Positions 6 through 716 of a stretch of 716 nucleotides of DNA are shown piece after piece (the first letter of the stretch is position 1; each line of letters opens with the position of its first letter). Under the pieces are notes generated by a model that did not search any database, was not told where the DNA came from, and saw only the letters and a list, made by a program, of their open reading frames with translations. The translations under genes were made by a program, and so were the position numbers. The DNA comes from Escherichia coli (lineage in GTDB: Bacteria > Pseudomonadota > Gammaproteobacteria > Enterobacterales > Enterobacteriaceae). Where the stretch lies: assembly GCF_003334255.1 (NCBI RefSeq), contig NZ_QOWU01000196.1; one strand, written 5' to 3'.

Positions 6-200
6 ATGACTGACTCCACTCAAACAAAAGACTTATACAGCGATTTACGCTTCATCATCATACAACAGCAATCAGGCAGGATGGATCCAACACGTGCAAG
101 CAAGGCCTGGAAAGAAGCCCTTACCGATCAGGGGATCGATGTAATTAGCGAAGTCATGGCTGAAGTGATTTTTAGGCTGACAAGAGACGAATCACTGTAA
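6..200 (+). CDS. Hypothetical small protein (64 aa from first ATG; start uncertain, possibly 5'-truncated at window edge)
   Basis: Open frame from ATG 6-8 to TAA 198-200. The frame stays open upstream to position 3, so the true start may lie outside the window, and no RBS can be assessed because only 5 nt precede the ATG. An in-frame internal ATG at 81-83 is an alternative start. Same strand as, and 25 bp upstream of, the better-supported ORF2. Product not recognised. Confidence 0.45.
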   Translation: MTDSTQTKDLYSDLRFIIIQQQSGRMDPTRASKAWKEALTDQGIDVISEVMAEVIFRLTRDESL

Positions 201-209
201 TCATCGCAT

Positions 210-225: not shown

Positions 226-561
226 ATGAAGCAACAACGAAATGCACGCATCAATAACAACACCGAACGCCACGTTGCACGCCAGCACTTCCGTAAAAAT
301 AGTGCGACCGTAACCACTGAAATCCACGCAACACCAGACGGCCATCCGATAAAACAAACCGGCAAGCACACCTGGACGATTGGCGACACTGGCATCGTTA
401 TTCACAAAAGTTTTCGCAGCCCTGTTACTGGCAGATTTAATTTCACCCTGACTCGCGGGGATGATTACTTCGGACAGGATTTCACATTTTTTGAAGCCTT
501 AAGAACGGCAGACAGATTAATCAACGGCCTGCGTTTTCAATATCCGGGAAGCAAGCACTGA
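226..561 (+). CDS. Hypothetical protein, 111 aa, with a strongly basic N-terminus and an aromatic-rich C-terminal half; function unknown
   Basis: Longest ORF in the window, ATG 226 to TGA 559-561, followed immediately in frame by TAA 562-564. It has an upstream SD-like motif and a single in-frame ATG. The antisense ORFs overlapping it are shorter and have Cys/Trp-rich composition typical of spurious reverse frames. No family recognised from memory. Confidence 0.6.
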   Translation: MKQQRNARINNNTERHVARQHFRKNSATVTTEIHATPDGHPIKQTGKHTWTIGDTGIVIHKSFRSPVTGRFNFTLTRGDDYFGQDFTFFEALRTADRLINGLRFQYPGSKH

Positions 562-566
562 TAAAT

Positions 567-572
567 AAAGGA
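567..572 (+). promoter_or_regulatory. Shine-Dalgarno-like motif (AAAGGA) for ORF3
   Basis: AAAGGA at 567-572 lies 7 nt upstream of ATG 580-582, which is near-ideal spacing, and sits just after the ORF2 tandem stops. Confidence 0.5.
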
Positions 573-579
573 TTCAGCC

Positions 580-716
580 ATGATCGAAGCCTACAAAATA
601 CTTATTAATAACGCGTTGCAGCGTTACCACTTCGAACTTGCAAACCGGGGCGTAACTAAGGATGAAAGCCTTCGTAACTCACTGCGCGGCGCAATTATGG
701 GGCTATACAACTGCGC
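580..716 (+). CDS. Hypothetical protein, N-terminal 45 codons only (3'-truncated by window end)
   Basis: ATG 580-582 with a well-spaced SD; frame is open through the window end (MIEAYKILINNALQRYHFELANRGVTKDESLRNSLRGAIMGLYNC...). It is absent from the supplied ORF track, presumably because no stop codon is reached. Same strand and 18 bp downstream of ORF2. Confidence 0.5.
   Translation, partial: MIEAYKILINNALQRYHFELANRGVTKDESLRNSLRGAIMGLYNC

Follow-up and report, generated by a model that had tools for sequence, protein, structure and literature searches.

A doubled stop codon at a probably ordinary gene junction, and likely mosaic boundary, in the early region of a P2-like Escherichia coli prophage

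We analyzed the junction between two open reading frames (ORFs), ORF2 and ORF3, in a 716-nucleotide (nt) stretch of Escherichia coli DNA from contig NZ_QOWU01000196.1 (the window, meaning the whole stretch analyzed). ORF2 encodes a DUF4761 protein and ends in two consecutive in-frame stop codons, and ORF3, which encodes a DUF4754 protein, starts a short distance downstream behind a Shine-Dalgarno (SD) sequence. This is very probably an ordinary junction between two cistrons, with SD-led initiation, within the early lytic operon of a P2-like prophage, and at the same time a phage mosaic boundary. The original prediction, made from the letters of the window, had taken the doubled stop and what it saw as a strong SD as signs of efficient termination and re-initiation, at a real gene boundary within a tightly organized operon.

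The junction reads GCA AGC CAC TGA TAA ATA AAG GAT TCA GCC ATG ATC GAA. The doubled TGA-TAA stop, the 18 nt from the first stop to the ATG (562-579), the AAAGGA motif and the ORF3 start codon (580-582) all lie where they had been placed, and the 7 nt from GGA to ATG are a good SD spacing. Two further points had been missed. First, ORF2 and ORF3 share one reading frame (559 + 21 = 580), the ORF3 frame being open from position 565. Second, a third stop triplet, TAA at 566-568, is found between the doubled stop and the ATG (Table 1).

According to our reading of this junction, ribosomes on ORF2 would terminate at the TGA, in a TGAT context, and ORF3 would be started at ATG 580 by means of a moderate AAGGA, which precedes it by 7 nt in a spacer that is A/T-rich and unstructured. 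Translation of ORF3 probably begins independently of that of ORF2, and ribosomes that have terminated 18 nt upstream may add some re-initiation. The second stop, TAA 562-564, most likely results incidentally from the A/T-richness of the ORF3 leader TAAATAAAGGA, and is most likely not a selected safety device. The stop pair, the spacer and the SD move with the ORF3 module, and the junction corresponds to the empty state of a slot that is filled in most relatives.

The gene boundary itself proved to be real, and not a chance frame break, as the two ORFs belong to separate Pfam families, are annotated as separate coding sequences (CDS) in RefSeq and have no fused homologs. ORF2 matches DUF4761 with E=3.9e-29 (model positions 4-99 of 105), and ORF3 matches DUF4754 with E=1.1e-15 (model positions 3-77 of 80). 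ATG 580 is the first possible start in the ORF3 frame, no start codon being found between TAA 562 and ATG 580, and it lines up with Met1, which is invariant in all DUF4754 homologs. In one set of loci, DUF4754 is located downstream of DUF4761 in 90/90 cases; in a second set, DUF4761 is located upstream of DUF4754 in 77/80 cases, and the other three loci end at a contig edge. No ORF2-ORF3 fusion was found in 24 protein clusters built at 90% identity, all of which are 64-121 amino acids (aa) long and match PF15958 only, nor in 20 representatives at 50% identity, where the single long protein is P0030. Fused homologs and relatives with a missing ORF3, which the original prediction had named as findings that would speak against it, were both looked for in relatives, and neither was seen.

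P0030 (222 aa) was considered as a candidate fusion and rejected, as its C-terminal part has no DUF4754 match (probability 0.2). In this chimeric cluster, the N-terminal 67 residues match DUF4761 and the remainder resembles, by eye, the C-terminal part of the P2 GpO-type scaffold; a deletion, a chimera or a misassembly is the probable origin. The only fusion of any kind among the fetched loci is of another type: in locus L154 (722-1489; IMG/VR contig 2690316318_000018), the DUF4761 gene has lost 1 nt close to its 3' end, and the resulting frameshift fuses it to the intervening gene, giving an ORF of ~210 aa from the first Met (open frame of 256 codons). This frameshift is either a sequencing error or a mark of a decaying prophage. 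An apparent direct junction of the form "TAA AGG, 11-nt" was rejected as an additional junction type because it turned out to be this same L154 frameshift. Programmed read-through or selenocysteine recoding at the TGA was likewise rejected, since a TAA follows the TGA directly and no fused homolog was found.

Comparison with related prophages indicates that the ORF2-ORF3 junction is a mosaic recombination boundary, a property that had gone unnoticed. Identity to a sister prophage is 70% over positions 319-500 and 69% over 501-558, and then 95.5% over 559-579, 100% over 580-609 and 92.6% over 580-700; the step sits at the ORF2 stop codon. The sister prophage has one extra A in the A run, which gives a 19-nt spacer. 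In S19-651-type and SCU-106-type prophages, homology to the window stops at 508-527 and does not return before the end of ORF3, and in STEC17-183 homology starts at 263. This identity step, together with the breakpoints, shows that the stops, the spacer and the SD travel with the ORF3 module. An exact-pattern scan of IMG/VR for the ORF3 leader returned no contigs beyond those already in the comparison set.

Direct adjacency of ORF2 and ORF3 is not conserved in relatives, most of which have a gene between the two. An intervening gene of 71-105 aa separates DUF4761 from DUF4754 in phage P88 and in 70/90 loci. By BLASTP, these intervening genes can be sorted into five or more mutually dissimilar groups (examples are L002 2402-2680, L003 3063-3278, L005 3090-3314, L019 2299-2535, and L024 2310-2564). 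The window thus holds the empty, 18-nt state of a small hypervariable slot, and direct adjacency is the minority state, which the original prediction had also not noticed. One group of slot genes, found in L024, L025, and L030, gives a weak DUF4754 profile score of 17 bits and may be a distant DUF4754 paralog, a lead only. In L075 (2351-2394), the 42-nt spacer of a direct DUF4761-DUF4754 junction holds a short GC-rich segment and then TTATTTTTT, and is faintly terminator-like by look.

The junction could also be the scar of a deletion or recombination event, in which a slot gene was lost or the ORF3 module was joined to a new ORF2, with the stops TGA, TAA, and TAA left as relics. Such an account concerns the origin of the junction and is compatible with its being an ordinary one today; we consider it possible, if rather doubtful. 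It agrees with the sharp identity step at the stop codon and with the breakpoints at 508-527 relative to two other prophage types. It agrees as well with the out-of-frame TAA at 566-568, 11 nt before the ATG, which sits where the preceding gene truly stops in P88-type (11 nt) and L009-type (12 nt) junctions and fits a relic of an older gene end. This positional match, however, rests on about 6 nt (TAAAGG). The extended SD consensus UAAGGAGGU begins with UAA, and TAA triplets are therefore expected just 5' of an SD core; the ORF2 leader also has one (TAAGGA at 209-214). Convergence is thus possible, and the SD consensus explains the position of TAA 566-568 equally well. Moreover, the comparison is compatible with either direction, insertion or deletion, and the slot genes are dissimilar to each other, so that repeated insertion fits as well as loss.

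The SD of ORF3 is moderate, and not strong as had been proposed. Pairing of the 20 nt before the ATG with the 3' end of the 16S rRNA reaches at best -5.4 kcal/mol, against a median of -6.9 kcal/mol over 67 neighboring genes, 52 of which are stronger, and -13.5 kcal/mol for the consensus. A promoter and terminator scan detected no sigma-70-like or terminator-like site at 540-600, and an Rfam scan of the window (E<=1) returned nothing. Folding of the RNA from 520 to 640 gave -19.9 kcal/mol, compared with -20.4 +/- 3.2 kcal/mol for shuffled sequences (z = 0.16), and both the SD and the ATG are unpaired in the centroid structure. As there is no structure to unmask, independent initiation at ORF3 is probable.

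These results bear on obligate termination-reinitiation coupling, in which ORF3 would be read mainly by ribosomes finishing ORF2, thereby fixing the ratio of the two proteins. We regard this as unlikely. Of the two hallmarks of a coupled pair that we considered, the short spacing (18 nt) is present and an RNA structure masking the ribosome-binding site is absent. The SD is placed 7-11 nt after the stop, at a distance where, as known from ribosome footprints, a terminating ribosome still covers the mRNA or just ceases to, and it is only moderate; both points would suit coupling. So would the short distance, as a review describes coupling as most efficient at small distances and adds that, at closely spaced genes, a new ribosome must wait until the terminating one leaves (PMC12548453). 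The same review states, however, that increases in distance of less than 20 nt can already cut coupling substantially (PMC12548453). In addition, the SD and the ATG are not masked by an inhibitory structure, so independent initiation should be possible, and another gene precedes DUF4754 in most relatives, with no specific DUF4761-to-DUF4754 coupling conserved. The 18-nt gap would allow some re-initiation and would not require any.

Doubled stops of this kind are no rarer in this genome than expected by chance. An immediate in-frame second stop is present in 7/67 annotated CDS of the surrounding 50 kb (6 among the first 54 CDS, from hok to int), and in 8/117 ORFs with 150 aa or more from a 150-kb part of this genome, including 5/45 of those ending in TGA; the expectation from base composition downstream of stops is 4.9%. 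Neither is it conserved across diverged junctions, as it occurs in only one of the ten junction types found behind DUF4761, the other nine having a single stop. Direct DUF4761-DUF4754 junctions read TGA-TAA (18/19 nt), TAA-GTC (12 nt), TAA-GGC (38 nt), or TAG-CAG (42 nt). Junctions to an intervening gene read TAA-CAG/CGG, TGA-TAC, TAA-CGC, TAA-TAT, TAA-TAC/TCC/CCA, or TGA-CCA. In bacteria at large, additional stops were reported to show a paucity and not an excess, with no selection for a fail-safe; the sole exception was the codon directly after TGA, which was put down to T being preferred at the fourth base (Ho & Hurst 2019, PMC6764699). The TGAT context found here matches this preference. 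The specially efficient termination that had been attributed to the doubled stop was thus not upheld, given its background frequency, the single stops in nine types and the contrary findings of that study.

We weighed whether TAA 562-564 could be a selected fail-safe, kept to stop read-through of a leaky TGA into a DUF4761-linker-DUF4754 fusion, and consider this very unlikely. Several points nevertheless weigh against our reading of the second stop as incidental. TGA is the leakiest of the stop codons. Because ORF2 and ORF3 share a frame, a second stop could conceivably have a job there. TGATAA is kept identically in the 18-nt and 19-nt lineages, though their ORF2 proteins are only 56-58% identical. 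The position right after TGA is also the only one at which an excess of stops was reported (Ho & Hurst, PMC6764699). It is conceivable that TAA 562-564 may contribute to termination fidelity, or coupling to the yield of ORF3. However, the 19-nt variant shifts ORF3 out of the ORF2 frame and yet keeps TGATAA, so its retention does not track the risk of fusion. The two lineages with TGATAA share the whole 5' module of ORF3 at 95-100% identity, and the spacer is conserved no better than the adjoining 5' end of ORF3. The identity of TGATAA across the lineages would thus be due to recent shared ancestry of the module, the ORF3 5' end being equally identical, that is, to common descent and not to demonstrable selection. 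The single stops in the other nine types and the background frequency of doubled stops speak against a fail-safe too, as does the attribution of the post-TGA excess to the fourth-base T, with no selection in bacteria (PMC6764699). More improbable still is that the stop-rich leader TGATAAATAAAGGA, with stops in two of the three frames before the SD, has been selected as a portable "plug" of the ORF3 module; if it had been, it would let the module recombine behind foreign genes, and genes be gained or lost in the variable slot, without read-through fusions, and would be a selected feature of the mosaic boundary.

The window is 100% identical to a segment of the E. coli DETEC-S792 chromosome (NZ_CP116067.1 4054087-4054802, minus strand). 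A megablast of phage records with the window gave no close match, and plasmid records gave two partial matches only. The nearest named phages, found by distant blastn, are P88 and other members of Xuanwuvirus (Peduoviridae), with ~67-70% DNA identity over part of ORF2. According to the RefSeq annotation, the window lies in a complete P2-like (P88/Xuanwuvirus-like) prophage of ~36.6 kb between ytfP and chpS. The gene content is that of a P2-like (Peduoviridae) prophage. An integrase and a helix-turn-helix (C-type) repressor are encoded on one strand, divergent from cox. On the cox strand, cox is followed by a series of small genes and by genes for a 3'-5' exonuclease, a Dam methylase and the replication endonuclease (gpA). 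The P2-type set of portal, terminase, GpO scaffold, capsid, tail and ogr genes follows downstream. The window falls in the early block directly after cox, between cox and replication gene A. The spacings of neighboring genes in this block are 25, 18, and -4 nt, in keeping with the tightly organized operon of the original prediction, and the order of the genes, together with knowledge of P2, suggests that the block is transcribed as one operon. The only promoter-like match in the window is found at 177-204 (+), 22 nt before the ORF2 start, and consists of CTGACA, a 16-nt spacer and TG-AATCAT; shuffled sequence yields a mean of 1.1 such matches per 716 nt, and the site is probably there by chance.

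Table 1 Features of the 716-nt window and of the ORF2-ORF3 junction
Feature	Position	Strand	Description
Antisense gene, first codons	1..7	-	145 aa; phrog_2266, function unknown (PHROG match); RefSeq CDS L001 14570-15007 (-)
ORF1	6..200	+	64-aa hypothetical protein, no family match
ORF2	226..561	+	111 aa; DUF4761 (PF15958); phrog_2492 (function unknown)
TGA, ORF2 stop	559..561	+	next base T, giving the tetranucleotide TGAT
TAA, second in-frame stop	562..564	+	also in the ORF3 frame
Intercistronic spacer, 18 nt	562..579	+	A/T-rich, unstructured, no promoter-like or terminator-like site
TAA, third stop triplet	566..568	+	+1 frame, 11 nt 5' of the ATG
Shine-Dalgarno core AAGGA	568..572	+	moderate, -5.4 kcal/mol; AAAGGA at 567-572
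ORF3	580..716 (full 580-822)	+	80 aa; DUF4754 (PF15946); phrog_2549 (function unknown)

The PHROG matches of ORF2 and ORF3 have E values of 1.7e-34 and 1.8e-28, respectively. ORF2 has a basic, variable N-terminus of ~30 residues with predicted disorder, and its AlphaFold model has a confident core at residues 30-105 (block predicted local distance difference test (pLDDT) scores of ~85-94) made of a five-stranded sheet and a C-terminal helix. ORF3, which continues 106 nt past the end of the window to L001 15822, is confidently modeled as a three-helix bundle (pLDDT 90.8). No significant structural neighbor was found for either model. NCBIfam and PADLOC gave zero matches for ORF1-3, orf4, and the antisense gene, and a PDB sequence search gave none for DUF4761. 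The PDB matches of DUF4754 were designed helical repeats only and were set aside as a composition effect. A search of the literature library found no paper mentioning DUF4761 or DUF4754. After ORF3 comes a 41-aa ORF that overlaps it by 4 nt, followed by 213 nt without annotation (L001 15945-16157); this part of the early block has no other gap of notable size.

The antisense 145-aa gene sits between cox and ORF1, inside the early block and on the opposite strand. The ATG codons of this gene (complement of 5-7) and of ORF1 (6-8) overlap in head-to-head orientation, and the window shows no sigma-70-like promoter for the antisense gene. A reverse-oriented gene is located at the same place in relatives too (L004 1583-1993 and L008 846-1169).

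In itself, the junction matters little. The analysis bears out that a gene in a P2-like prophage was called correctly, and it shows that a doubled stop beside a ribosome-binding site is, alone, no evidence of special translational control. A by-product of the analysis is a map of the small hypervariable slot between DUF4761 and DUF4754 in P88-like phages, which could hold accessory genes.

The resemblance to a tandem-stop fail-safe (PMC6764699) lies in the TGA with an in-frame TAA directly behind it and in the T at the fourth base; the junction differs in that the doubled stop occurs at background frequency and in one junction lineage, and the preference for T and an A/T-rich sequence would suffice to explain it. 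Phage P88 (Xuanwuvirus, NC_026014) has the same arrangement of int, C, cox and small early genes up to gene A, with DUF4761 (gp04) before DUF4754 (gp06). In P88 and most relatives, unlike in the window, where the slot is empty, an extra gene (gp05 of P88, 92 aa) lies between the two and the stops are single, and the DNA of P88 is only ~69% identical to the window over part of ORF2. In temperate phages, mosaic boundaries between modules and slots for accessory genes ("morons") have reportedly been described by Hendrix, Juhala and colleagues. Here, as there, identity changes sharply at a gene border, and unrelated small genes fill a slot in different relatives; classical morons carry an independent promoter and terminator, whereas none accompanies the slot genes here. 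Compared with a standard intercistronic junction (PMC12548453), nothing is distinctive: no structure masks the ribosome-binding site, start and stop do not overlap, and the adjacency is not conserved. What the two have in common is a short same-strand spacing, of 18 nt here, an SD 7 nt before the ATG and the lack of any transcription signal between the genes.
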